Assembly (NCBI GenBank): GCA_963741955.1
Contig: CAVUKB010000007.1
Span: forward strand, 312,558 to 376,557
DNA: 64,000 bases
Source: an uncultured Acidobacteriota bacterium
Lineage (GTDB): Bacteria; Acidobacteriota; Thermoanaerobaculia; Gp7-AA8
Direction of reading: 5' to 3'
Of this stretch, positions 16,841 through 38,030 are shown piece after piece (position 1 is the first letter of the stretch; each line of letters begins with the position of its first letter). Under the pieces are notes generated by a model that worked only from the letters and a program-made list of their open reading frames with translations, did not search any database and was not told the DNA's origin. The position numbers were made by a program, and so were the translations under genes.

Positions 16841-17917
16841 ATGAAACTCTCCGAGCTCGGATGGAGCGAATTTTTCGACGTGGCACTGGCACAGAGCCGG
16901 GGGAAAGGTCTGACCCCCGGGCGCGTCGTGTCGGAGCATCGCGGGGTGCTGAGGGTGGCGACGGAAAAGAGAGAGTGGAGAGCCCGACCGGCGGGACGGC
17001 TCCGCCGCGAGGCGGTGGGACGGGGCGATCTTCCCGCAGTCGGCGACTGGGTTCTTCTCGAGGCTCCCGCCAACGCGGACATCGCCCTGGTCCAGCAGGT
17101 GCTTCCACGACGGACGAAGTTTTCCAGGCGGGCCGCTGGCGAACGGAATGAGGAACAGGTTCTCGCGGCGAACATCGATCTGGTCTGGATCGCCGCTTCG
17201 ATCGCCGGCGAGGTCAACCTGCGAAGCATCGAGAGATATCTTTCGATCGCGTGGGAGAGCGGAGCGCAACCGGTGGTGGTGCTCACCAAAGCGGATCTCG
17301 CAGCTGATGCAGTGGCCGCAGTGAGCGCGGTCGAGTCGATCTCCCCCGGAATACCGGTGGTGGCGGTCAGCAGCGTGAGCGGCGAAGGAATCGCCGCGCT
17401 CGGTGATCTCCTGACGCCGGGAACCTCGATCGCGATCCTCGGTCCCTCCGGAGTGGGGAAGTCGAGCCTGATCAACCGCATCGCCGGCGAGGAACTGATG
17501 AAAGTCGGCGACGTGCGGGAGGACGATCAGAGAGGGCGGCACACCACCACACACCGTCAGCTTCTGCGGATGCCGTCCGGCGCGCTGATCATCGATACAC
17601 CCGGAATCCGTGAGATCCAGCTCTGGGAAACGGAGGAGGGAATCGAAGAGACATTTTCCGAGATCGAGATCGCGGCGCGGCATTGCCGCTTCAGCGACTG
17701 CCGTCACGAGACCGAACCGGGATGTGGGGTCCGTGATGCGCTCGCTCGCGGAGAGCTCGACACGAAGCGGGTGGCGAGTTTCCGAAAGCTCCAGAGCGAG
17801 ATCGAGTTTCAGGAGCAGAAGCACGATCCCCGAGTGCGGGCGGAGGCGAAACGTCGTATCCGGGAGATCATGCGAGCGTTCCGGAAGCCGGACAAGTTGC
17901 GGGACCGGCGGAAGTAG
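16841..17917 (+). CDS. rsgA: Ribosome small-subunit-dependent GTPase A
   Basis: ATG verified at 16841. Circularly permuted GTPase order (G4 VLTKADL upstream of P-loop GPSGVGKSSLIN). OB fold and C-terminal Cys/His zinc motif (CRFSDCRHETEPGC). Confidence 0.9.
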   Translation: MKLSELGWSEFFDVALAQSRGKGLTPGRVVSEHRGVLRVATEKREWRARPAGRLRREAVGRGDLPAVGDWVLLEAPANADIALVQQVLPRRTKFSRRAAGERNEEQVLAANIDLVWIAASIAGEVNLRSIERYLSIAWESGAQPVVVLTKADLAADAVAAVSAVESISPGIPVVAVSSVSGEGIAALGDLLTPGTSIAILGPSGVGKSSLINRIAGEELMKVGDVREDDQRGRHTTTHRQLLRMPSGALIIDTPGIREIQLWETEEGIEETFSEIEIAARHCRFSDCRHETEPGCGVRDALARGELDTKRVASFRKLQSEIEFQEQKHDPRVRAEAKRRIREIMRAFRKPDKLRDRRK

Positions 17918-18640
17918 CGCGGTTCGCGCTCCCCGCGCGGCCGGTCTCTCCGGGGTGCGGTTCGTCCGATCTCTCTGGGGTGCGGATCATCCGATCCGCG
18001 GCGGAGATCGTGTTGTACGGGATGAAGAGCGTGCCTGTGGGTGAACGCGGAGCGTCGGTGGCCGGACCGGTGTGGATGGAAGAGGCTCTGCTTCAGCCGC
18101 AGGGACTGTCTCGATCCGATCTGAACGCGGTCGTCGCGGCGGATCAGAGGATCCGCGCTCCCCGCGCGGCCTGTCTCCCGGGGTGCGGTTCGTCCGATCT
18201 CTCCGGGGTGCGGATCATCCGATCCGCGACGGAGATCGTGTTGTACGCGATGAAGAGCGAGCCTGTGGGTGAACGCGGAGCGTCGGTGGCCGGACCGGTG
18301 TGGATGGAAGAGGCTCCGCTTCAGCCGCAGGGACTGTCTCGATCCGATCTGAACGCGGTCGTCGCGGCGGATCAGAGGATCCGCGCTCCCCGCGCGGCCG
18401 GTCTCTCCGGGGTGCGGTTCGTCCGATCTCTCTGGGGTGCGGATCATCCGATCCGCGACGGAGATCGTGTTGTACGCGATGAAGAGCGTGCCTGTGGGTG
18501 AACGCGGAGCGTCGGTGGCCGGACCGGTGTGGATGGAAGCGGCTCCGCTTCAGCCGCAGGGATGGTCTCGATCCGTTCTGAACGCGGTCGTCGTGGCGGA
18601 TCAGAGGATCCGCGCTCCCCGCGCGACAGATCGATCCGGA
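17918..18640. repeat. Intergenic tandem direct repeat, ~3.1 copies of a 228/229-bp unit (>95% identical), each unit containing short hairpins (gcggatc-atcc-gatccgc; gcggatc-agag-gatccgc)
   Basis: Anchor string cgctccccgcgcgg found at 17927, 18156, 18384 and 18613 (periods 229/228/229). Only a handful of SNPs and 1-nt indels between copies. Lies between the rsgA stop and the M23 peptidase start. Confidence 0.9.
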
Positions 18641-21571: not shown

Positions 21572-23612
21572 TATCTGAAACCTTTATCTTCTATCTAGCC
21601 TGAAGTTCCCTGGGGCTATAGGCAAGGATCCGCTGTAAATTCAGGGAGATAGGCAGGAATATGCGTGCAGGCTTCTGTCTACAAGTGGATGGACTTGAGC
21701 AGATCGAAGGCGCGCTGTTGAGTTAGGCCTGGGGTGGTGACGAGGTCGAAGGTGGACTCGTCGTTGGATGCGCCCGGACGGCGAGCGGTGTTGCGGACGA
21801 TGGTGCTCAGGTCTGCGAGCAGGGTCTGAAAGCTGTGGGCGGGAGTGCCGTCGTCGAGTACCTTCGAATGGATCTTATCGAGCGCTTTCGCTGATCGTTT
21901 TGCGGGAGCAACGGGATCACGGCTCGTTTTTGCCTGCTGGTCCTCGTCGGAGAAAAGCAGTGGGCGCCAGGCTTCCATCATGTGCCAGGCCACGTAGTAG
22001 GCCAGCATGCAGAGGAAGATGTGAGCCTTGACGCGCTCCTCGAGCCGGTGGCGGATGGGCCGCACCTGGAGATCGACAGTCTTCAGTGAGCGAAAGGCCC
22101 GCTCGACCTGACTGAGCAGCTTGTAACTGCGCACGACGTCGTCGGTGCCAAGAGTCTCGGCGGCCACGCTGGTCCTTACGACATAGAGCCCATCGAGGGA
22201 AGCCTCGCGCGCCACCTTGTCCGCGTCGATGTGGAAGTCAAGCCCGTCATCGCGAATGTCCAGGACAATGTGTTTGGCGACCTTGTACTTGTCGATCACC
22301 TTGCCGACGCGTACGCCAATGACGTCCTTTCCTTGGAGCTTGCCGTGCGAGACCATCCCTCGCACTTTCTCCAATTCCTTGAGCGTAGCCTCGAGGAGCG
22401 ACTCGCGTTTGTGCGCGCGCAACCGGGCCAGATCCGCATTGCGACAGGCCACCAGTCGCTCGCCCGGGAAATCGGGATGGGTCATCTCGAAAAGATTGCG
22501 CGTGTCGAACAGCCCGAGCTGGATATGACCGGCGTCAACGAGCTTTTGAATCGTCACGCTCCTGAGGGCCGTAATCCAATCAATGCCGTCTCGCTGACGG
22601 AGATCATCGATTTGCTTCTGCGAGATCATGCCGCGATCGCCAACGAGAACAAACTTCTCGATCGTGAAGGTCTTCTGTAGTTTCTCGACCTGAGGCATCA
22701 ATGTCCTGGGGTCACTGGTGTTGCCATCGAAGACACTCACTGCTACGGGGCACCCACGGCGGTCGGTCAGCAGTCCGTAGTTGACCTGAAGCTTGCCCTT
22801 CTTGCCATCCCGGTTGTGGCCGCGCATGGCGAGCGGGCAGCTCTCTCCCTCGAAATAGCTCGAGCTCAGGTCGTACAGGACCAGACCGCCCTTGGGCAGA
22901 TGTCTCGCTGCGAGTTTCTTTTCGATTGCGTCTTGTCGGCCAAGCAGCCAATCGAGCGCGCCATAGAGGTCGTCTTCATCGGCATCGGTGACACCGAAGA
23001 CTTCGGGAATCGTCGAGGTGTGCCATGACCGCACGGTGCTGAGCTTGCTGCGCGGGGCAAGGATACGAGCCGCCACCATGGCGAGGACCAGATCACGCTC
23101 GCGGCACGAGCGAGATGCAACGAGCGAAGCGAAGCCGAGTTGCTTGATTGCGATCTGGACGGCTTCGACATGACCGTGATGGACCGATCGAATGATCTCG
23201 AACAGCTCGGCGATCGGGGCGAGCCTCTCGCCCTTCAAGATTCTGCGAATCGCGTCGATCTGATCGGCCGGCAGGGCCGAGAGATTGGCCAGCGTGCGTT
23301 TTCGGACCTTGGCCCCCACCCGGTAGGACTCGCGCAGCAGGACGGCCGGGGCCGAGTTGCGGTTCGGCACGATGTCGATGTGCATGGCCACAGTATGCCA
23401 GTACTATTCACACCTGTCAATGCAGTAATCACACTTACATGGCTACATTCTTGCATACAAATCGAGGTCATCTTCAAGAAAACACAGCACTTCTCTGCGA
23501 AAACCCCCGGGAACTTCAGTCTAGCTGGATGCTCTCTTATCAGGCACTAATTAGATAACAGATAATAGATAACAGATAACAGATAACAGATAATAGATAA
23601 TAGATATCAGAT
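21551..23612. mobile_element. IS1634-family (IS4-like) insertion sequence, ~2.06 kb, with imperfect terminal IRs and low-GC heptamer microsatellite-like subterminal repeats
   Basis: Left end: catctgatatctgatatctgatatctgaaac...ctagcctgaagttccctgggg. Right end reverse complement: catctgatatctattatctattatctgttatctg...ctagactgaagttcccggggg. Encodes one DDE transposase. Confidence 0.75.
21679..23385 (-). CDS. IS1634-family DDE transposase
   Basis: 568 aa. Typical IS1634 transposase architecture and motifs (VLVGDRGMISQ, long C-terminal region). ORF-track start 23391 is GTG; ATG verified at 23383-23385. Confidence 0.85.
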   Translation of the reverse strand: MHIDIVPNRNSAPAVLLRESYRVGAKVRKRTLANLSALPADQIDAIRRILKGERLAPIAELFEIIRSVHHGHVEAVQIAIKQLGFASLVASRSCRERDLVLAMVAARILAPRSKLSTVRSWHTSTIPEVFGVTDADEDDLYGALDWLLGRQDAIEKKLAARHLPKGGLVLYDLSSSYFEGESCPLAMRGHNRDGKKGKLQVNYGLLTDRRGCPVAVSVFDGNTSDPRTLMPQVEKLQKTFTIEKFVLVGDRGMISQKQIDDLRQRDGIDWITALRSVTIQKLVDAGHIQLGLFDTRNLFEMTHPDFPGERLVACRNADLARLRAHKRESLLEATLKELEKVRGMVSHGKLQGKDVIGVRVGKVIDKYKVAKHIVLDIRDDGLDFHIDADKVAREASLDGLYVVRTSVAAETLGTDDVVRSYKLLSQVERAFRSLKTVDLQVRPIRHRLEERVKAHIFLCMLAYYVAWHMMEAWRPLLFSDEDQQAKTSRDPVAPAKRSAKALDKIHSKVLDDGTPAHSFQTLLADLSTIVRNTARRPGASNDESTFDLVTTPGLTQQRAFDLLKSIHL

Positions 23613-29014: not shown

Positions 29015-29245
29015 GAGCGCCGAGGGGCGCCGGCTTCCAGCCGGCAGCGGTCAGGCCTCCGCGCCTGACCGCGAGGGAGCTCGGGAGAAGTGAGAGATCT
29101 CGCGCGGTGCAGGGACGCGGATTGAACGCACGAGGTGACGAGCGCGGGACGCTCGTCACGAGCCGGCAGGGATGCCGGCGGTCCATATCGGATCGTCACG
29201 AATTCGGCAGCGATGACGGCGGTCCGGAGAACGGGAGGAGAATCG

Positions 29246-30378: not shown

Positions 30379-33318
30379 ATGGCTGGTTCACGCATTCTAC
30401 GTATCGCCGTCTTTTTCTGCCTGATCGGACTGGTCGGCTCGCTCGCGTTCGCGCAGCAGGTCGGCTCCATCAGCGGAAAAGTGACCACATCGTCGGGAGA
30501 GGTTCTCCCCGGCGTGACCGTCGAGGCACGATCGAACGTGCTTCCCCAGGCCCGGGTCACCACGACCGCGGCCAACGGGGTTTACAGGTTTCCGGCGCTG
30601 CCTCCAGGCAAGTACACCGTGCAGTTCTCTCTCGCCGGGATGCAGGCGCAGACCCGCGACGTGCAGGTCTACCTGAACATCGACTCCCCGGTCGACGTGC
30701 AGATGGGAATTGCGGGGGTGAGCGAGAGCATCACCGTCACTGCGCAGACCCCCTTCACCGACCCCACCACGACGGCGATCAAGAGCGCCATTCCGCAGGA
30801 AGCGATCGAGCGGCTCCCGGTCGGACAGGAGTACCGCGATCTGATCAAGCTCGCCCCGGGCGTTCAGGTCAACGAGGCATCGGTCCGTGGACCGGCGGCC
30901 GGCGGAAGTGAACAGGACAACATCTATCAGTTCGACGGCGTGAACGTGACGCTCCCTCTCTTCGGAACGCTCGCGGCGGAGCCGTCCTCCCAGGACATCG
31001 AGCAGATCACCGTCGTCAAAGGCGGCGCGAAGGCGGTCGATTTTAACCGTTCGGCCGGGTTCACCATCGACTCCGTCAGTAAGTCGGGAACGAGTGAATT
31101 CAAGGGCGACGTGAAGTACCAGTTCCAGAACGCCGGAATGACGGCGGATCAGGTCGGCACGTCGCTTTCCCAGTACGACCAGGACCGCGCCTGGGCCAGT
31201 CTCGGAATCGGCGGTCCGATCATGAAGGACCGCCTCTACTTCTACGGGTCGTACTACCGTCCGACCATCGATCGGGCGAACAGCTCGAACCTCTACGGCG
31301 ACGTGCCGAACTTCAAGAGTACTCGTGACGAGTACTTCGGGAAGCTGACCTACACGCCGACCAGCAAGATCCTTCTCAACGGAAGCTATCGCGACTCGAG
31401 CCGCACGGACGATAACGCCAGCATCGGTGGCGCGGAAGCTCCGAGTGCAGCCACGAACAACGAATCCAAACAGAAGATCGGGATTCTCGAGGCGTCGTGG
31501 GTGGTCACTGACCGCAGCTACGTCAGCGCAAAATACAATGACTACGCGCTGAAGACGGCCGGCGTCCCGCAGACGGTTCTTTCCGTCGTTCCGAACCTGA
31601 CCCCGGGAACCACCCTCGACATCGGGAACATGGCGCAGATGGGCTACTTCGAAGTTCCGTCACTCATCGAGGGGAACGACGCCTTCAACTCGTTCATCGC
31701 GCCATTCGTCGACCAATACGGGTTCATCCGCGATGGGACGAAAACGGGCGGCGGCGCAGTCGGCGGCGCATTCCAGTTCGACATGGACAACTTCTACCGC
31801 AAGAGCTATCAGCTCGGTTACGACGTGACGCTGGGCCGGCAGTTCACCCACGACATCCACGTCGGGTGGCAGGGATTCAAAGACTCCGAGGACCTCGGCC
31901 GCTCTTCGAACGGCTGGGGCGACATCACCGTGATCGGCGGCCGTTCCAACTGCCCCGCGGACACCGGGTGCGAAGGTCAGCCGATCTACTTCCAGGCCGA
32001 CGTGCAGCGGTCGAGCGAAGCCGCACTCGGCACGCAGGTCATCCATTCCGAGTATCAGTCGCAGAACGTCGAGCTCAACGACACCATGCGTACCGGCAAC
32101 TGGTCGTTCAATGTCGGCGTACTCGCCAGCAACGACACCCTGTACGGTCAGGGTCTTCGCGAAGATTCGTCGACCATCTCCGGATACGTTGCTGACCCGG
32201 GACACAAGTACAAGATGCACACCATCAAGTGGTCCGATCAGATCCAGCCGCGTCTCGGCGTGACCTGGGCCTACAACGGGACCGATACCGCGTACGTCAG
32301 CTACGCCCGCTACAACCCGATCGCGAGCTCGCTCCCGCGCGCCGCATCGTGGGATCGCAACACGCTCGGTCTCGTCACCCGCGCCTACTTCGACCAGAAT
32401 GGTGCTCTGATCGGCAGCGAACAGCTGGCGTCGAGCTCTGGAAAGCTGTTTCAGCAGGGGATCAAGCCGCGTTACACCGACGAGTACCTGATCGGTACCG
32501 GACGCCAGATCAACAGCCGCTGGAGCGCACGTGCCTATGCACGCTACCGCTACTCCTCGCGGTTCTGGGAAGACACCCCGAACAACGCGCGCCTCTATGC
32601 CAACGCGCCCGACTCGGTGCCGCATGAGCTCTACATCCCGAATCTGAACGACATGCGCAATCAGATCGGGAGCGGCTCAAGCTACGTCATCGCGACCCTC
32701 GACGGTGCGTTCACCAAGTACTACGAAGCGACGTTCGAGTCGAACCTCCAGGCGACCGAGAACCTCTACTTCCACGGCACCTACACCTGGAGCCACTACT
32801 ACGGGAACTTCGACCAGGACGCGACCAGCACCACGTACGACTTCGCGACCTTCATCGGCTCGTCGAACATCGCCGATGGTCCCGGCCGCCAGGTGTGGGA
32901 CAACAAGTACGGCAACCTTCACGCGGATCGCCGCAACCTCCTCAAGCTCGACGGCTACTACCGGCTTCCGTGGAATGCCACAGTGGGCGCCTTCACCTTC
33001 TATCAGTCGGGCGACCACTGGGAGGCGTGGAGCTACGAGCCGTACAGCAGTCTCACCAGCTCGAGGAGTGACACCAACCGTTATGCCGAACCGGCAGGTT
33101 CTCGCACCAGCCCGGCGCATTACCAGCTGGATCTCGACTACACGCAGAACATCCCGATTCACAACCTCAACCTCCAGCTGATCGGAGACGTCTTCAACCT
33201 ATTCGACAAGCAGACGGGCTATTCGCCACAGCCCGCCGTGCACAGTTCGTTGTTCGGCCAGCCGCGACTCCGTTTCGCGCCGCGGCGCTTCCAGCTGGCG
33301 GTTCGCCTGCAGTTCTAG
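30379..33318 (+). CDS. TonB-dependent outer-membrane receptor with N-terminal carboxypeptidase-regulatory-like domain
   Basis: ATG verified at 30379. Signal peptide. CarboxypepD_reg-like (SISGKVTTSSGEVLPGVTVEA...ANGVYRFPALPPGKYTV). Plug and barrel; terminal ...RLQF aromatic. Confidence 0.8.
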   Translation: MAGSRILRIAVFFCLIGLVGSLAFAQQVGSISGKVTTSSGEVLPGVTVEARSNVLPQARVTTTAANGVYRFPALPPGKYTVQFSLAGMQAQTRDVQVYLNIDSPVDVQMGIAGVSESITVTAQTPFTDPTTTAIKSAIPQEAIERLPVGQEYRDLIKLAPGVQVNEASVRGPAAGGSEQDNIYQFDGVNVTLPLFGTLAAEPSSQDIEQITVVKGGAKAVDFNRSAGFTIDSVSKSGTSEFKGDVKYQFQNAGMTADQVGTSLSQYDQDRAWASLGIGGPIMKDRLYFYGSYYRPTIDRANSSNLYGDVPNFKSTRDEYFGKLTYTPTSKILLNGSYRDSSRTDDNASIGGAEAPSAATNNESKQKIGILEASWVVTDRSYVSAKYNDYALKTAGVPQTVLSVVPNLTPGTTLDIGNMAQMGYFEVPSLIEGNDAFNSFIAPFVDQYGFIRDGTKTGGGAVGGAFQFDMDNFYRKSYQLGYDVTLGRQFTHDIHVGWQGFKDSEDLGRSSNGWGDITVIGGRSNCPADTGCEGQPIYFQADVQRSSEAALGTQVIHSEYQSQNVELNDTMRTGNWSFNVGVLASNDTLYGQGLREDSSTISGYVADPGHKYKMHTIKWSDQIQPRLGVTWAYNGTDTAYVSYARYNPIASSLPRAASWDRNTLGLVTRAYFDQNGALIGSEQLASSSGKLFQQGIKPRYTDEYLIGTGRQINSRWSARAYARYRYSSRFWEDTPNNARLYANAPDSVPHELYIPNLNDMRNQIGSGSSYVIATLDGAFTKYYEATFESNLQATENLYFHGTYTWSHYYGNFDQDATSTTYDFATFIGSSNIADGPGRQVWDNKYGNLHADRRNLLKLDGYYRLPWNATVGAFTFYQSGDHWEAWSYEPYSSLTSSRSDTNRYAEPAGSRTSPAHYQLDLDYTQNIPIHNLNLQLIGDVFNLFDKQTGYSPQPAVHSSLFGQPRLRFAPRRFQLAVRLQF

Positions 33319-33342
33319 GCGAGGGCTTCACGCGTCACTCGA

Positions 33343-33374
33343 AAGGCCCGGGCTTGCCCGGGCCTTTCTGTTTG
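33343..33374 (+). terminator. Rho-independent terminator after the TonB-dependent receptor gene
   Basis: gaaaggcccgggc-ttg-cccgggcctttc followed by tgttt. Confidence 0.6.
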
Positions 33375-33538: not shown

Positions 33539-35578
33539 CTACTGAACCCGATCGAACAGGCGCTCGTTCGCGATCAATTGCTGCGTCATCGCATTCGCGT
33601 GCACCTTCGCGATGGCGATGCGCGACGCGGCGTCGGGCTCCTGCAGCAGGACGCTCACCTGGGCGCGTTTGAAGAGCGCCATCGGATATCCGGGATCGCT
33701 CGCGGTGACGCGATCGAGCGCGTCTCGGGCATCGGCGAGCCTGCGCGCATCGAGGTAAAGCACTCCGAGCTCGAGATCGTGTGCGAACCGGGAGCCTTCG
33801 GTCGTCCTCGCCCGCTCGAACGCATCGAGCGCCACCGGAGTATTGCCGACGCGCATCGCGAGCTCGCCGAGGTGAACCAGCTCCGCGCCGTCGGGCGACT
33901 TCATGCCGAATGCGCGCTGGTAGAGATCGACGGCCTGATCGAGCTCCCCTTCACGCTCCCGTATCGCTGCGAGCCCTTCGATGGCGGGAAGGCGGTCGGG
34001 CGTCTTCGCCAGCACCTTCTCGAGCAGGGGTGCGGCACGGTCGGGCTGCCCGCCACGGAGATAGTGAAGTGCGAGATACATCTTCACGTCGAGCGAATCC
34101 GGCGCGATCGCTTCAGCTCGATGGAACGACGCGATCGCCGCCGCGTTGCGGCCGAGCGCCGACTCGGCGACTGCGAGCCGCAGCGTGACCATGAGATTGT
34201 TCGGATCCTGGCGGAGGATCTTCTCGAAGAGCGGCACCACCTCCGCGTAACTCGCACTCCCGAACAGCGCCGATGCTTCGTCGAGCTCTCCGAACATCCC
34301 GACCATGTCGATCGGGCGGGGAGCGTCTTTTCGCAGAGGCGGACGCGCCTCCGACGCGATGTAGCCGAGACTCGCGAGCTGCTTGCGGTCTTCGTCACTC
34401 AGATCGGTGTTGCCGGCCGGCTGGTCCGGTGACGGAATCGGGTACTCGCGGATCGCGGTGCGTACGTCGCGCGGAATGGCGGCGTCCGGCGCGAGGTCCT
34501 TCGTCTCCTTCGGATCCGCCACGACGTCGTAGATCTCGAGGGAGCCGGCTTCGATGTACTTGCGGTGTCCCTCCACCGCCATTACCTGCGGCTGCCATCC
34601 GTACTGGAGAAAAGGGGCCATCGCTTCGGCGATCACCACTTCCGGTTTCGTGTTCCGAAGGCTCTCGGACCGGTCGATTCCCGCGAAATCGAGGATCGTC
34701 TGGCAGATCCGTCGTGTGCTCACAGGAGTGTCGGAGACGGCGCTGCGGAACCCTGGCCCCGTGACGATCAGCGGCACGTGAATCGTCGTTTGATAGAGCA
34801 GATTTCCGTGCTGCGACTCCCCGTGGTCGCCGAGCCCTTCGCCGTGATCACCGACCACGATGACGCCGACCGGACCGTTCGCGCGCGAGCGGAACGCGGC
34901 GACGAGGCGTCCCATCTGCTGGTCCATTTCAGCGATCTCGCCGAGATACGGCCGGCCGGCGTAGCGGGATCGGAACGGCTCGGGAGGTTCGTACGGAAAA
35001 TGAGGGTCGTAGTAATGAACCCAGACGAACAGCGGCAGCGCGGGTGACTGCGCGAGCCACCGCAGAGCGAGGTCGGTGGTCTCTTTCGAGCTTCGTTCGT
35101 TGCGGCCGCGGCCGAGTGTGTCGTCGTAGTGGTCGAATCCGCGGGCGAGACCGAACTGTCGCTCGAGCGGGAAGCCGGAGATGAACGCGGCGGTCGCGTA
35201 CCCCGCCTGGTGGAGGCGCTCCGCCACGAGCGGTTCCTTCGAGGAGAGATATCGGGCGTTCTCGTGGAGTCCGTGCGCAGCCGGATAGAGTCCGGTCATC
35301 ATCGACGTGTGAGAGGGAAGCGTCTCGGGCGCCGTGGCGTACGCCTGCCGGAATCGCATTCCTTCTGCGGCGAGAGAGTCGAACGCCGGGGTGTCGACGC
35401 CCTTCGCTTCGGGACCGATGGAATCCGCGCGGGTCGTGTCGAGAGTGACCAGAAGTATCGAAGGACGGACCGACGGGGGAGCCGGCGTCTTCGTCTCGGG
35501 CACGTTTCGCGAGCAGGCGGCGAGCGCTGCGATCGCGGCCGCTACCAACGCGATTCGGAGTGAACGGGAGATCTTCAT
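33539..35578 (-). CDS. Sulfatase-family (alkaline-phosphatase superfamily) lipoprotein with C-terminal TPR repeats
   Basis: ATG verified at 35576-35578 (MKISRSLRIALVAAAIAALAAC lipobox). Sulfatase motifs (LLVTLDTTRAD, PSHTSMMTGLYP, VGDHGEGLGDHGE). Four or more TPRs at the C-terminus. The upstream ~200 codons of the track ORF are repeat-array sequence. Confidence 0.8.
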   Translation of the reverse strand: MKISRSLRIALVAAAIAALAACSRNVPETKTPAPPSVRPSILLVTLDTTRADSIGPEAKGVDTPAFDSLAAEGMRFRQAYATAPETLPSHTSMMTGLYPAAHGLHENARYLSSKEPLVAERLHQAGYATAAFISGFPLERQFGLARGFDHYDDTLGRGRNERSSKETTDLALRWLAQSPALPLFVWVHYYDPHFPYEPPEPFRSRYAGRPYLGEIAEMDQQMGRLVAAFRSRANGPVGVIVVGDHGEGLGDHGESQHGNLLYQTTIHVPLIVTGPGFRSAVSDTPVSTRRICQTILDFAGIDRSESLRNTKPEVVIAEAMAPFLQYGWQPQVMAVEGHRKYIEAGSLEIYDVVADPKETKDLAPDAAIPRDVRTAIREYPIPSPDQPAGNTDLSDEDRKQLASLGYIASEARPPLRKDAPRPIDMVGMFGELDEASALFGSASYAEVVPLFEKILRQDPNNLMVTLRLAVAESALGRNAAAIASFHRAEAIAPDSLDVKMYLALHYLRGGQPDRAAPLLEKVLAKTPDRLPAIEGLAAIREREGELDQAVDLYQRAFGMKSPDGAELVHLGELAMRVGNTPVALDAFERARTTEGSRFAHDLELGVLYLDARRLADARDALDRVTASDPGYPMALFKRAQVSVLLQEPDAASRIAIAKVHANAMTQQLIANERLFDRVQ

Positions 35579-35649
35579 GGCGAAACGGGGATGGGTGGAT
35601 TCTATCGAGCGAGGAAACGAATCGGTGCGGTTCGATATTGCGCGGATGG

Positions 35650-37470
35650 TGTGGATGTGAAAGTGGGTCGCGCAAAGTGGGTTGCGGGTGAGTGGGTCGC
35701 GCGTCCCGCGCGAGGCTCCCCGGCATCCGTGCCGGGGAGCGATGGCGTCAACGCGGCGCAGGGCGTTCCTCTCGCGCGTCGAGGTGTTCGTGTCTCGATT
35801 CTCGGGAGGATGGGCGTGACTTGCACCGGGCAGGGCGGCGCGGGACGCCGCCCTGCATCGGACGAGACGTCCAACCCACAAGTGGGTCGCGCGCGAGTGG
35901 GTCGCGCGTCCCGCGCGAGGCTCCCCGGCATCCGTGCCGGGGAGCGATGGGGTCAACGCGGCGCAGGGCGCTTCTCTCGCGCGTCGAGGTGTTCGTGTCT
36001 CGATTCTCGGGAGGATGGTGGTGACTTGCACGGGACAGGGCGGCGCGGGACGCCGCCCTGCATCGGACGGGACGTCCAACCCACAAGCCGCTGCATCGGA
36101 CGAGACGTCCAACCCACAAGTGGGTCGCGCGCGAGTGGGTCGCGCGTCCCGCGCGAGGCTCCCCGGCATCCGTGCCGGGGAGCGATGGGGTCAACGCGGC
36201 GCAGGGCGTTCCTCTCGCGCGTCGAGGTGTTCGTGTCTCGATTCTCGGGAGGATGGTGGTGACTTGCACGGGACAGGGCGGCGCGGGACGCCGCCCTGCA
36301 TCGGACGAGACGTCCAACCCACAAAGTGGGTCGCGCGCGAGTGGGTCGCGCGTCCCGCGCGAGGCTCCCCGGCATCCGTGCCGGGGAGCGATGGCGTCAA
36401 CGTGGCGCAGGGCGCTTCTCTCGCGCGTCGAGGTGTTCGTGTCTCGATTCTCGGGAGGATCGTCGTGACTTGCACGGGACAGGGCGGCGCGGGACGCCGC
36501 CCTGCATCGGACGAGACGTCCAACCCACAAGTGGGTCGCGCGCGAGTGGGTCGCGCGTCCCGCGCGAGGCTCCCCGGCATCCGTGCCGGGGAGCGATGGG
36601 GTCAACGCGGCGCAGGGCGCTTCTCTCGCGCGTCGAGGTGTTCGTGTCTCGATTTTCGGGAGGATGGGCGTGACTTGCACGGGACAGGGCGGCGCGGGAC
36701 GCCGCCCTGCATCGGACGGGACGTCCAACCCACAAGTGGGTCGCGCGTCTCGCGCGAGGCTCCCCGGCATCCGTGCCGGGGAGCGATGGGGTGAACGCGG
36801 CGCAGGGCGCTTCTCTCGCGCGTCGAGGTGTTCGTGTTTCGATTCTCGGGAGGATGGGCGTGACTTGCACGGGACAGGGCGGCGCGGGACGCCGCCCTGC
36901 ATCGGACGGGACGTCCAACCCACAGGCCCCTGCATCGGACGAGACGTCCAACCCACAAGTGGGTTGCGGGTCCCGCGCGAGGCTCCCCGGCATCCGTGCC
37001 GGGGAGCGATGGCGTCAACGCGGCGCAGGGCGTTCCTCTCGCGCGTCGAGGTGTTCGTGTCTCGATTCTCGGGAGGATGGTGGTGACTTGCACTGGGCAG
37101 GGCGGCGCGGGACGCCGCCCTGCATCGGACGAGACGTCCAACCCACAAAGTGGTTCGCGCGTCCCGCGCGAGGCTCCCCGGCATCCGTGCCGGGGAGCGA
37201 TGGGGTCAACGCGGCGCGAGGCGCTTCTCTCGCGCGTCGAGGTGTTCGTGTTTCGATTCTCGGGAGGATGGGCGTGACTTGCACTGGACAGGGCGGCGCG
37301 GGACGCCGCCCTGCATCGGACGGGACGTCCAACCCACAGGCCCCTGCATCGGACGGGACGTCCAACCCACAGGCCCCTGCATCGGACGGGACGTCCAACC
37401 CACAAGTGGGTCGCGCGTCCCGCGCGAGGCTCCCCGGCATCCGTGCCGGGGAGCGATGCCATCGACGCGG
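35650..37470. repeat. Intergenic tandem array: ~9 copies of a ~190-250-bp unit (variable number of ~30-bp gcatcggacgggacgtccaacccacaagcc sub-repeats), each with two 11-bp GC hairpins
   Basis: Anchor ggctccccggcatccgtgccggggagcgatgg recurs at ~35714, 35925, 36160, 36363, 36568, 36750, 36980, 37172 and 37430. Hairpins gctccccggca-tccg-tgccggggagc and gcagggcggcg-cggga-cgccgccctgc. Fills the whole space between the sulfatase start and the DUF4142 stop. Confidence 0.9.
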
Positions 37471-37475
37471 CGCGA

Positions 37476-38030
37476 TCAGGAGCCGATCGAACCTTCCAAT
37501 CCCTGGGCGATCGACAGATGCTTTTGAATTCCCTGATCGATCGCCTGCAGGAGATTGCGGAGCTTCGCATTCCGGGTCGCCGGAATCAACGTATCCTGCA
37601 GCAGCCGGTGGACGTAACCGTGGACCGCGGCCTCGGTCTGGACGAATTTCCGGTCGAACGCTGCACCCTGATAGGTCTGAAGAGCCTGTACGGTCTGGTC
37701 GGCATTGTCGGAGAGCGTGCGGGCGGCGTCGGAATCGAGCGCGGTGACGTGGATCTGAGACAGTGTGCTGCTGATCTTGTCCGCCACATCGTGATGATCC
37801 GACAGCATGGTCTGGGCGAACTCCTTGACACCCGGGGTCGTCGCGCGGCTGCTCGCCAGCTCCGCCTGACGGATCGCCCCCTGGTTGATGGTGGAGATGA
37901 TTCCGGCGATCTGGCCGTCCGTGAAGCCGGGCTGGACCGCTGGCTGCGTCGAAGCGCACCCGGCCAGGGTCGCGGCGAAGACCACCGCCCCGACCAATGT
38001 GATTCCGATTCGAATCGGAGAATGCTTCAT
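37476..38030 (-). CDS. DUF4142 domain lipoprotein
   Basis: ATG verified at 38028-38030 with AGGAGG upstream. Lipobox LAGC. DUF4142-like helical sequence (...FAQTMLSDHHDVADKIS...FDRKFVQTEAAVH). Confidence 0.7.
   Translation of the reverse strand: MKHSPIRIGITLVGAVVFAATLAGCASTQPAVQPGFTDGQIAGIISTINQGAIRQAELASSRATTPGVKEFAQTMLSDHHDVADKISSTLSQIHVTALDSDAARTLSDNADQTVQALQTYQGAAFDRKFVQTEAAVHGYVHRLLQDTLIPATRNAKLRNLLQAIDQGIQKHLSIAQGLEGSIGS

Follow-up and report, generated by a model that had tools for sequence, protein, structure and literature searches.

What kind of element fills about 1.8 kb between two bacterial genes with near-identical, hairpin-bearing units of ~200 bp? Long-unit tandem arrays are rare in bacteria. 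Here, we analysed one in a 64,000-nucleotide stretch (the window) of an uncultured Acidobacteriota bacterium of the Thermoanaerobaculia (contig CAVUKB010000007.1), where it separates a DUF4142 gene from a sulfatase-TPR gene. The array is real and non-coding and comprises, at window positions 35,663–37,475, eight full units and a terminal partial unit. We think it somewhat probable that it is a single locus in a family of non-coding mosaic minisatellites that occupies intergenic sites genome-wide, is specific to the lineage and resembles the bacterial interspersed mosaic elements (BIMEs) and the Neisseria intergenic mosaic elements (NIMEs).

Structure of the array

The array lies between the DUF4142 stop and the sulfatase-TPR start, both genes being on the minus strand. 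An earlier note on this DNA had placed it there, and Tandem Repeats Finder (TRF) and anchor searches bear this out. TRF reports 35675–37338 with a period of 205 and 8.0 copies, and also nested 33-bp arrays. The anchor searches find nine copies of one hairpin (hp1) at spacings of 205, 238, 206, 205, 190, 223, 191 and 256, eight copies of another (hp2) and twelve copies of a 33-bp sub-repeat, one to three per unit. The eight full units align at ~95% identity and range from 190 to 256 bp.

Some details of the earlier note are thereby refined. Its about nine units correspond to the nine hp1 copies and are more precisely eight full units and a ninth partial one. The period varies with the sub-repeat copies as it claimed, one to three per unit, and a 15-bp duplication in units 5–8 contributes as well. 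Of its two perfect 11-bp hairpins per unit, hp1 is such in all nine copies, but hp2 has a perfect 11-bp stem in two units and a 10-bp stem in the other six. The array does not fill the whole intergenic or promoter region, since ~85 bp of unique sequence (35579–35662) precedes the sulfatase start.

Features of the array (window coordinates, strand, description, basis)

35663–37475, no strand: whole array, reading degenerate 15-mers, (M1 - interior - M2) x 8, then terminal M1 and ~19 nt interior-like sequence (TRF, anchor counts, unit alignment, edge analysis; M1 and M2 are the hairpin modules defined below)
37199–37454, minus: unit 1, 256 bp, three 33-bp sub-repeats; starts with hp1 21 nt past the DUF4142 stop (unit alignment, as for all units)
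37008–37198, minus: unit 2, 191 bp
36785–37007, minus: unit 3, 223 bp, two sub-repeats, hpX stem degraded (CCCGCAAC)
36595–36784, minus: unit 4, 190 bp, the minimal unit
36390–36594, minus: unit 5, 205 bp, extra 15-bp mini-repeat
36184–36389, minus: unit 6, 206 bp, extra 15-bp mini-repeat
35946–36183, minus: unit 7, 238 bp, 15-bp mini-repeat and two sub-repeats
35741–35945, minus: unit 8, 205 bp, extra 15-bp mini-repeat
35691–35744, minus: terminal 54-bp segment S (CATC + hp1 + hpX + CCCACT), identical to the first S copy at 37405–37458
35715–35740, no strand: hp1, perfect 11-bp GC stem with a 4-nt loop, GCTCCCCGGCA-TCCG-TGCCGGGGAGC (anchor search)
hp1 copy starts: 35715, 35920, 36158, 36364, 36569, 36759, 36982, 37173, 37429, each running to start + 25
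35697–35713 (first copy), no strand: hpX, TCGCGCG-TCC-CGCGCGA, a 7-bp stem adjoining every hp1 (sequence, unit alignment)
35830–35856, no strand: hp2, (G)CAGGGCGGCG-CGGGA-CGCCGCCCTG(C), 10–11-bp stem (anchor search)
hp2 copy starts: 35830, 36036, 36274, 36480, 36685, 36875, 37097, 37289
35856–35880, no strand: core of the 33-bp sub-repeat, CATCGGACGNGACGTCCAACCCACA, with the 5-bp hairpin hp3 (GGACG-NGA-CGTCC) (TRF, anchor search)
33-bp sub-repeat core starts: 35856, 36061, 36094, 36299, 36505, 36710, 36900, 36933, 37123, 37314, 37347, 37380
35663–35706, no strand: three degenerate 14–15-bp GTGGGTCGCGC mini-repeats at the sulfatase-side array edge (sequence, anchor search)

In the eight-unit alignment, the single-nucleotide polymorphisms (SNPs) are scattered and shared among units as a mosaic. 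The length differences are whole blocks only, namely zero to two extra 33-bp sub-repeats and an extra 15-bp mini-repeat. The 15-bp duplication, AGTGGGTCGCGCGCG, is carried by the four units closest to the sulfatase gene (5–8).

The ninth, partial unit consists of hp1, its hpX flank and ~19 nt of interior-like sequence, and ends at most 3 nt from the DUF4142 stop. This edge stretch is identical at 16 of 19 positions, compared with 91% identity among the internal units over the same stretch. Such divergence of edge copies relative to internal copies typically marks homogenisation by unequal exchange.

Folding of a two-unit stretch, compared with dinucleotide shuffles, gives z scores of -6.9 (minus strand) and -4.4 (plus strand). 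By themselves, these scores show only that the palindromes are real. Because the SNPs form a mosaic and the scores stand out on both strands, the resemblance of the units is not due to chance.

The other 62 kb of the window hold no further unit copy by blastn-short or nhmmer. One nhmmer match at 22192–22260 was rejected as chance, lying inside an IS4 transposase ORF (open reading frame) and lacking the hairpins. That ORF (21679–23391, minus strand, 570 aa) is of the IS4-type DDE kind (PF01609, E = 1.7e-16), and a microsatellite of 7 bp (AGATAAC x 8.6, 23553–23612) follows ~160 bp beyond it.

None of the unit lengths (190, 191, 205, 206, 223, 238 and 256 bp) is divisible by 3, each being 1 or 2 modulo 3, so the array ORFs shift frame at each unit. 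The two strands are open alike, as expected at ~70% G+C, and the long array ORFs match no Pfam family. A repetitive protein-coding gene, of which the array would be a fragment with a conserved reading frame, would account for the fact that both strands have long open frames and that the source assembly annotates them as genes (P0121). The frame analysis refutes it, however, and its homologues are only equally frame-shifting ORFs, apparently from the same genome, so we give it practically no credence. The array sequence is not protein-coding, and the pseudo-ORFs are artefacts, as the earlier note took them to be.

Known RNA families fare no better. At the gathering thresholds, Rfam gives no match in the whole window. 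A permissive Rfam search of the array returns only noise (mir-9209, ncS037, sbcD and CRISPR-DR29) at 14–20 bits against thresholds of 39–112, with E ≥ 0.8.

The dispersed family and its hairpin modules

The spurious array ORFs of the window served as protein queries against 5.8 billion clustered proteins and 1.8 billion representatives. They match 29 further spurious ORFs (P0122–P0150), each a singleton cluster from NCBI+ENA and lacking any Pfam domain. All of these are confined to five contigs of 1,466,178, 1,299,627, 705,193, 568,259 and 117,164 bp, and the window's own ORF, P0121, is on the 1,299,627-bp one. The five contigs (~4.2 Mb together) apparently make up one long-read genome, and no matching protein comes from any other organism in the two collections. 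The search for dispersed units, which the earlier note had proposed, is thus positive. Judged from these sequences, the family is dispersed through the genome.

The other arrays are known through degenerate DNA that was back-translated from their ORFs and aligned to two reference modules. Most back-translated positions are determined because successive units are read in different frames, and the same procedure recovers the window's true sequence from P0121. Together, the 30 ORFs amount to 10,218 aa or 30.6 kb, with ~110 copies of M1 and 109 of M2. They are mostly separate stretches, since gene callers avoid overlapping calls.

The arrays differ in period, from 166 to 310 bp. Because the periods and the interiors are distinct, we estimate that the genome would hold roughly 15–25 arrays. 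Of these, the window's contig would carry at least four, the 705-kb contig three and the 1.47-Mb contig about a dozen. Clustering ORFs into arrays by degenerate-DNA compatibility is too permissive, as pairs from different contigs reach 1 mismatch in 180 nt, and the joins P0122/P0130, P0131/P0132 and P0141/P0144/P0145 are only tentative.

In the databases, P0121–P0150 are thirty 'hypothetical proteins' of 166–730 aa, being frame-sliding translations of the arrays on both strands. They are annotation artefacts.

Nucleotide and literature searches give no relative of the family. A 21-mer interior pattern finds only a chance Klebsiella match among the GTDB species genomes, the pattern being poorly chosen as the interior is array-specific. 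Two exact patterns find nothing in the JGI metagenomes, three find nothing in IMG/VR, and blastn finds nothing among plasmids and phages. A full-text search found no description of such repeats in Thermoanaerobaculia or Acidobacteria.

We define two modules, M1 as hpX plus hp1 and M2 as hp2 plus one to three copies of the 33-bp hp3 sub-repeat. The block order is conserved as M2, one to five copies of the 15-bp mini-repeat and M1, giving four or five consecutive GC-rich hairpins. With M2 and M1 adjacent in tandem, each repeat is a conserved block of ~105–170 bp plus a variable interior of ~85–150 bp. Runs of the 15-bp GTGGGTCGCGCG mini-repeat occur at the edges of several arrays, the window's included, and appear in translation as RDPL, RATH or WVAR runs at the ends of P0123, P0126, P0134, P0138 and P0149.

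An alignment between arrays (A1) contains nine sequences from eight arrays, two of them window units. The identity between arrays is 98.8% in M1, 94.3% in M2 and 73.3% in the interior, and in P0140 and P0143 these modules enclose an unrelated interior. In this alignment, the modules are far more conserved than the interior, and hence the family appears not purely neutral. What is conserved is the hairpin block, which presumably has a function or is recognised.

The stems were counted at the positions fixed by the amino-acid sequence. The determinable pairs are 985 Watson-Crick, 21 wobble and 8 mismatched, or 97–99% Watson-Crick. In A1, the four stems are 98.8% paired, compared with 34–46% when the partners are slid by 1–3 columns. 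The hp1 stem is kept in ~110 copies genome-wide, and its loop is free to vary among TCCG, TCC, TCG and TCA.

Four independent compensatory double changes are found. They are C-G to G-C at hp1 pair 5 (P0131, P0132), C-G to T-A at hpX pair 4 (P0125), G-C to A-T at hpX pair 7 (P0130, P0137, P0139, P0146) and C-G to T-A at hp2 pair 7 (P0122, P0130, P0124), the last with U·G intermediates in P0122 and P0123. As far as the reconstructed arrays tell, the hairpin potential is maintained across the family.

Such conservation might instead reflect DNA-level binding of proteins. A regulator, a nucleoid protein or a factor like gyrase or IHF would then have putative binding sites in the direct 15-bp GTGGGTCGCGCG repeats, in the 5-N3-5 palindrome GGACG-NGA-CGTCC and in the long palindromes, and the arrays would shape supercoiling or the local structure of the chromosome, a role already proposed for BIMEs. 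BIMEs are known to bind several proteins, among them gyrase, IHF and Pol I, and to recruit IHF. The conservation is largely at the sequence level, with 31 of the 33 stem pairs lacking any compensatory change and 29 invariant in the nine sequences. The stems are fixed and the loops free, and the short motifs keep register at 15-bp and 33-bp spacing. However, the compensatory double changes mean that pairing is kept and not sequence alone, and no candidate binding protein is encoded beside the array. We regard this explanation as quite improbable.

Pairing could also be kept for RNA. The units would then be tandem structured small RNAs, made from a minus-strand 3′ extension of the DUF4142 mRNA or from unit-internal promoters and processed to unit length. 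Their stable hairpins would protect the RNA ends and the less structured interior would be the functional part, like in CcsR1-4/cuckoo of Rhodobacter and NsiR1 of Nostoc. This suits the very stable predicted structure (z = -6.9 on the minus strand), the stem-keeping compensatory changes and the start of the first unit 21 nt past the upstream gene's stop. The interiors of the window units and P0124 also have an anti-Shine-Dalgarno-like CCUCCC motif. Moreover, 19 wobble cells against 2 fall on the minus strand of the unit, which is sense to both flanking genes, but as independent events they reduce to ~4 versus 2 and are a hint only.

The likeness to CcsR1-4/cuckoo and NsiR1 lies in near-identical hairpin units in tandem directly downstream of a small same-strand gene, some with a CCUCCC-type motif. 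The CcsR units of ~70–90 nt have two stem-loops with CCUCCUCCC in the loops and follow a DUF1127 gene in tandem (PMC8034643). They are likewise co-transcribed with the upstream small-protein gene and then processed (PMC8034643). Here, in contrast, the units are 2–3 times longer, the upstream gene is DUF4142, and each unit has a single CCUCCC, which lies in the interior outside any hairpin loop.

Nor is the motif constant from array to array, as it becomes CUUCCC, GGUCCC or other forms, and the P0140/P0143 interior is unrelated. RNAalifold finds no conserved interior structure, the covariation term being unfavourable (+0.97). The units belong to no Rfam family, and no promoter or terminator consensus appears on the minus strand. 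The near-perfect 10–11-bp palindromes, with ~97% Watson-Crick pairs and few G·U, are more like DNA palindromes or repetitive extragenic palindromes (REPs) than evolved RNAs. The tandem structured non-coding RNA proposed in the earlier note hence finds no positive support in the Rfam noise, the RNAalifold result or the unconserved CCUCCC/GGGAGG. Tandem small RNAs are a weaker rival to the mosaic-repeat family, and we consider them rather unlikely.

Two smaller candidates within the unit were also rejected. An anti-Shine-Dalgarno seed at CCUCCC fails as CCUCCC/GGGAGG is not conserved between arrays, and a small ORF behind GGGAGG fails as there is no per-unit stop codon.

The empty allele and copy number

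The locus is also seen without the array. A short-read metagenome-assembled genome (MAG) of the Thermoanaerobaculia, GCA_049580305.1, is 99.96–99.99% identical to the window over 17 kb of its contig JBAUPR010000376.1. By exact look-up, the flanking proteins are found in this MAG, on a Logan contig of run SRR27973573 and on a contig of more than 1 Mb. In the MAG, the DUF4142-sulfatase spacer is only 183 bp and reads left flank - S - right flank (L-S-R) with no interior. This empty allele is the exact product of recombination between the first and last S copies, and the first hp1 is retained in it.

The window thus has 8.3 array copies and the MAG, a short-read assembly, 0.3 (S only). Zero units at this site in an otherwise near-identical genome support the earlier suggestion of a copy-number-variable element. 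The copy number is probably polymorphic, 0 versus 8 units.

The Logan contig ends inside S, where k-mers cease being unique. This is expected if the SRR27973573 reads contain a branch into the repeat. Two independent short-read assemblies break at, or jump across, S.

The window has a second array at 17925–18625 (plus strand), with 3.1 copies of a ~229-bp unit at 96% identity, spacings of 233 and 224 and an internal 25-bp sub-repeat. It is apparently unrelated in sequence to the main array. It fills the spacer from the stop of an RsgA-type GTPase gene (16841–17917) to a plus-strand Peptidase_M23 gene. Its architecture is that of the main array, a CG-rich hairpin segment, GCGCGCTCCCCGCGCG, bracketing the units at both ends.

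The short-read assemblies stop there too. The MAG contig JBAUPR010000030.1 stops one unit into this second array, and the Logan contig ends 37 bp past the GTPase gene. Because the same MAG breaks in the second array yet passes the main site cleanly, real L-S-R molecules are suggested.

A same-strain short-read MAG that lacks the array at this site would also be expected if a long-read assembler had expanded one hairpin region into a false array. Against such an artefact, mosaic SNPs and clean 15-bp and 33-bp blocks set the units apart, and the edges are more diverged than the internal copies. The Logan assembly of SRR27973573 halts exactly where the unique k-mers run out inside S, ~29 further ORFs of similar arrays lie on five contigs, and the interior sequence is not derivable from the empty allele. 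An assembly artefact is therefore very unlikely.

The empty allele bears on two other explanations as well. It speaks against the tandem small RNAs, all units being lost at the locus in an otherwise identical genome, and against the protein-binding sites, the array being dispensable in a near-identical genome.

Likely nature of the family

The array then appears as one member of a BIME/NIME-like mosaic minisatellite family, for which we picture the following dynamics. The arrays would grow or shrink as the identical 54-bp M1 segments recombine unequally or slip during replication. Slippage on a smaller scale would act between the 33-bp and 15-bp repeats, giving nested scales of 15 bp, 33 bp and ~200 bp. 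Deletion from one outermost M1 copy to the other would leave the empty allele. A new array may start from a unit set beside a solo M1-type hairpin, either by a putative hairpin-recognising enzyme or by excised unit circles that re-integrate by homologous recombination.

In architecture and genomic behaviour, BIMEs and NIMEs are the closest known systems, and in population behaviour the variable-number tandem repeats (VNTRs) of the mycobacterial interspersed repetitive unit (MIRU) type. Like the BIMEs of E. coli and other Proteobacteria, the family has extragenic GC-rich palindromes and linker motifs in tandem mosaic units, lies between genes, often just past a stop codon, at many loci per genome, is species-specific in sequence and varies in copy number between strains. 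Unlike in BIMEs, the unit is 170–310 bp with four or five different hairpins, and the arrays exceed 2 kb.

The family is not REP in the strict sense. REPs are 20–40 bp with an unpaired GTAG or CGTC tag and form alternating head-to-head/tail-to-tail dimers (PMC3733652, PMC2817692). The palindromes hp1 and hp2 are 25–27 bp long with ~110 copies each; every copy seen is inside an array, and the remaining 62 kb of the window have no solo hp1 or hp2. No GTAG/CGTC tag flanks hp1 (..GCGAG/GCTCC.. and ..GGAGC/GATGG..) or hp2 (..CGGGA/CAGGG.. and ..CCCTG/CATCG..), and CGTC occurs only inside the paired hp3 stem. The orientation does not alternate, all modules being head-to-tail as M1 - interior - M2 in the eight units and all reconstructed arrays. 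REP systems further have a cognate RAYT gene (a Y1/HUH transposase) flanked by the repeats, and a Pfam scan of selected window ORFs gives one IS4-type DDE transposase and no Y1_Tnp. The REP/BIME-like array of the earlier note is hence right as the closest architecture and in being dispersed, but not in tag or orientation.

NIMEs consist of RS units of 50–150 bp flanked by 20-bp dRS3 repeats. Like them, the family alternates a conserved short palindromic element with a variable unit in recombinogenic intergenic arrays, and its interiors differ between arrays. Unlike them, it is of the phylum Acidobacteriota without any sequence relation, its conserved block is ~105–170 bp with several long hairpins and not 20 bp, and the interiors within an array are near-identical tandem copies. 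The dRS3 (CGTC-1) elements occur mostly in large clusters (PMC3733652), and the array has no dRS3-like or CGTC-tagged element.

The MIRU-type VNTRs are dispersed tandem repeats between co-oriented genes, with copy numbers polymorphic in close strains via slippage or recombination. The family resembles them as dispersed intergenic tandem repeats between co-oriented genes. It behaves as a VNTR or minisatellite in being head-to-tail and in differing in copy number between close genomes, the comparator being a short-read MAG. The MIRUs of Mycobacterium are 46–101 bp, lack a long series of perfect hairpins and are thought to carry small overlapping ORFs.

Arrays of short palindromic repeats that are clustered and regularly interspaced (CRISPR) and of integron attC sites likewise alternate a hairpin-forming conserved block with a less conserved segment. 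CRISPR repeats are 23–55 bp with unique spacers of similar length. CRISPR was rejected as the interiors are ~95% identical within the array, the repeat block is longer than 100 bp and the genome has many arrays; the sole Rfam CRISPR-DR match has 17.9 bits against a threshold of 39. Integron attC was rejected as no RYYYAAC/GTTRRRY core sites are read in the sequence, the interiors are identical and the arrays are many.

The genes and the spacer around the array frame any effect it may have on expression.

37476–38030, minus: DUF4142 gene, 184 aa, Shine-Dalgarno AGGAGG; stop 21 nt upstream of the first hp1 (Pfam)
33539–35578, minus: sulfatase-TPR gene, 679 aa, downstream of the array (protein look-up)
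35579–35662, minus: unique non-repeat spacer, ~85 bp, from the array to the sulfatase start codon at 35578 (sequence)

By analogy with GC-rich hairpin terminators in other high-GC bacteria, the solo or first M1 hairpin, 21 nt past the DUF4142 stop, is most likely that gene's U-tract-less terminator or 3′-end stabiliser. On the same analogy, the 54-bp hairpin modules probably act also as terminator or insulator structures. The array itself would be a tolerated by-product and at most insulate the sulfatase gene from read-through. An effect on sulfatase expression, by insulation or read-through, is possible but not indicated, because the gene retains ~85 bp of unique upstream sequence with a -10-like TAGAAT (35599–35604, minus strand). 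The TAGAAT was read by eye, and the promoter scan made no call.

The consensus scan finds no two-hexamer or sigma-70 promoter, none in the sulfatase-side spacer either. Its terminator-like sites are two weak ones on the plus strand, equal to the shuffled expectation, and the minus strand shows no promoter or terminator consensus. Sigma-54 and ECF promoter look-alikes seen by eye were rejected as their spacing or conservation fails.

Two relatives in Thermoanaerobaculia (L005, ERZ25039533 contig_25364; L006, ERZ25039463 contig_70253), on contigs of 4.46 Mb and 470 kb, have sulfatases 63–64% identical to that of the window. The sulfatase-TPR and the downstream CarboxypepD_reg genes are syntenic with the window, but the upstream neighbour is an Orn/DAP decarboxylase gene, abutting or overlapping the sulfatase start, and not DUF4142. 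The array sits, therefore, at a synteny breakpoint. The relatives have no arrays and no hp1 in 44 kb.

Other gene ends in the window are rich in hairpins too. The spacer after an amino-acid permease gene (29030–29180) holds a series of perfect GC hairpins, among them GCGGTCAGGC-CTCCGC-GCCTGACCGC, GTGACGAGCG-CGGGA-CGCTCGTCAC with the loop as in hp2, and CCGGCA-GGGA-TGCCGG with the core as in hp1. They are unrelated to the array modules. The first hairpin starts at 29047, exactly where the MAG contig JBAUPR010000376.1 stops. Multi-hairpin gene ends therefore appear to be general in this genome and to cause breaks in short-read contigs. A perfect 12-bp hairpin, GAAAGGCCCGGG-CTTG-CCCGGGCCTTTC, at 33341–33368 lies between the convergent ends of a CarboxypepD_reg/TonB-type gene (30379–33318, plus) and the sulfatase gene (33539–35578, minus) and is likely a bidirectional terminator.

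Several points weigh against the mosaic minisatellite family as proposed here. The empty allele could be an assembler shortcut. The other arrays are known from back-translated amino acids, leaving silent positions blank and the array counts estimated. The wobble bias would suit an RNA in the sense of the flanking genes. A terminator role comes by analogy with the GC-rich terminators of other high-GC bacteria, as the minus strand has no U-tract after any hairpin. Neither a mobilising enzyme nor a mechanism of spread is seen in the window. Finally, M1 identity of 98.8% with an interior of 73% exceeds what a neutral by-product predicts and implies selection or directed homogenisation.

The last point may be met by a bolder explanation, an undescribed bacterial satellite DNA. 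In it, a self-propagating, non-autonomous element would be recognised or recombined at the M2 + M1 block (~105–170 bp). Units would be mobilised by a hairpin-specific HUH or recombinase enzyme, or circles excised by M1 x M1 recombination would re-integrate at solo M1 hairpins. The arrays, seeded at gene ends genome-wide, would then become rearrangement hotspots, and in a variant a family of unit-length RNAs would be processed from them. Such an element would account for modules that are 94–99% identical genome-wide beside interiors with 73% identity or none in common. We treat it as possible but unlikely.

In summary, we propose a family that extends over at least 30 kb, or ~0.7% of a roughly 4-Mb genome, and we infer its function and mobility. 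Short-read MAGs erase such arrays, leaving nothing at the main locus and a contig break at the second array, and gene callers turn them into dozens of 'hypothetical proteins' (P0121–P0150) that pollute the protein databases. The arrays mark contig breaks and are probably hotspots of rearrangement and copy-number change. Long-read metagenomes can thus reveal satellite-like repeat families in uncultured phyla. Near-invariant hairpin modules with array-specific interiors, at a satellite-like, genome-wide scale, are unusual for a bacterium. If the modules are mobilised or are processed RNAs, the family would be a new type beside the REP/BIME, NIME, MITE (miniature transposable elements with inverted repeats) and CRISPR-like intergenic repeats.

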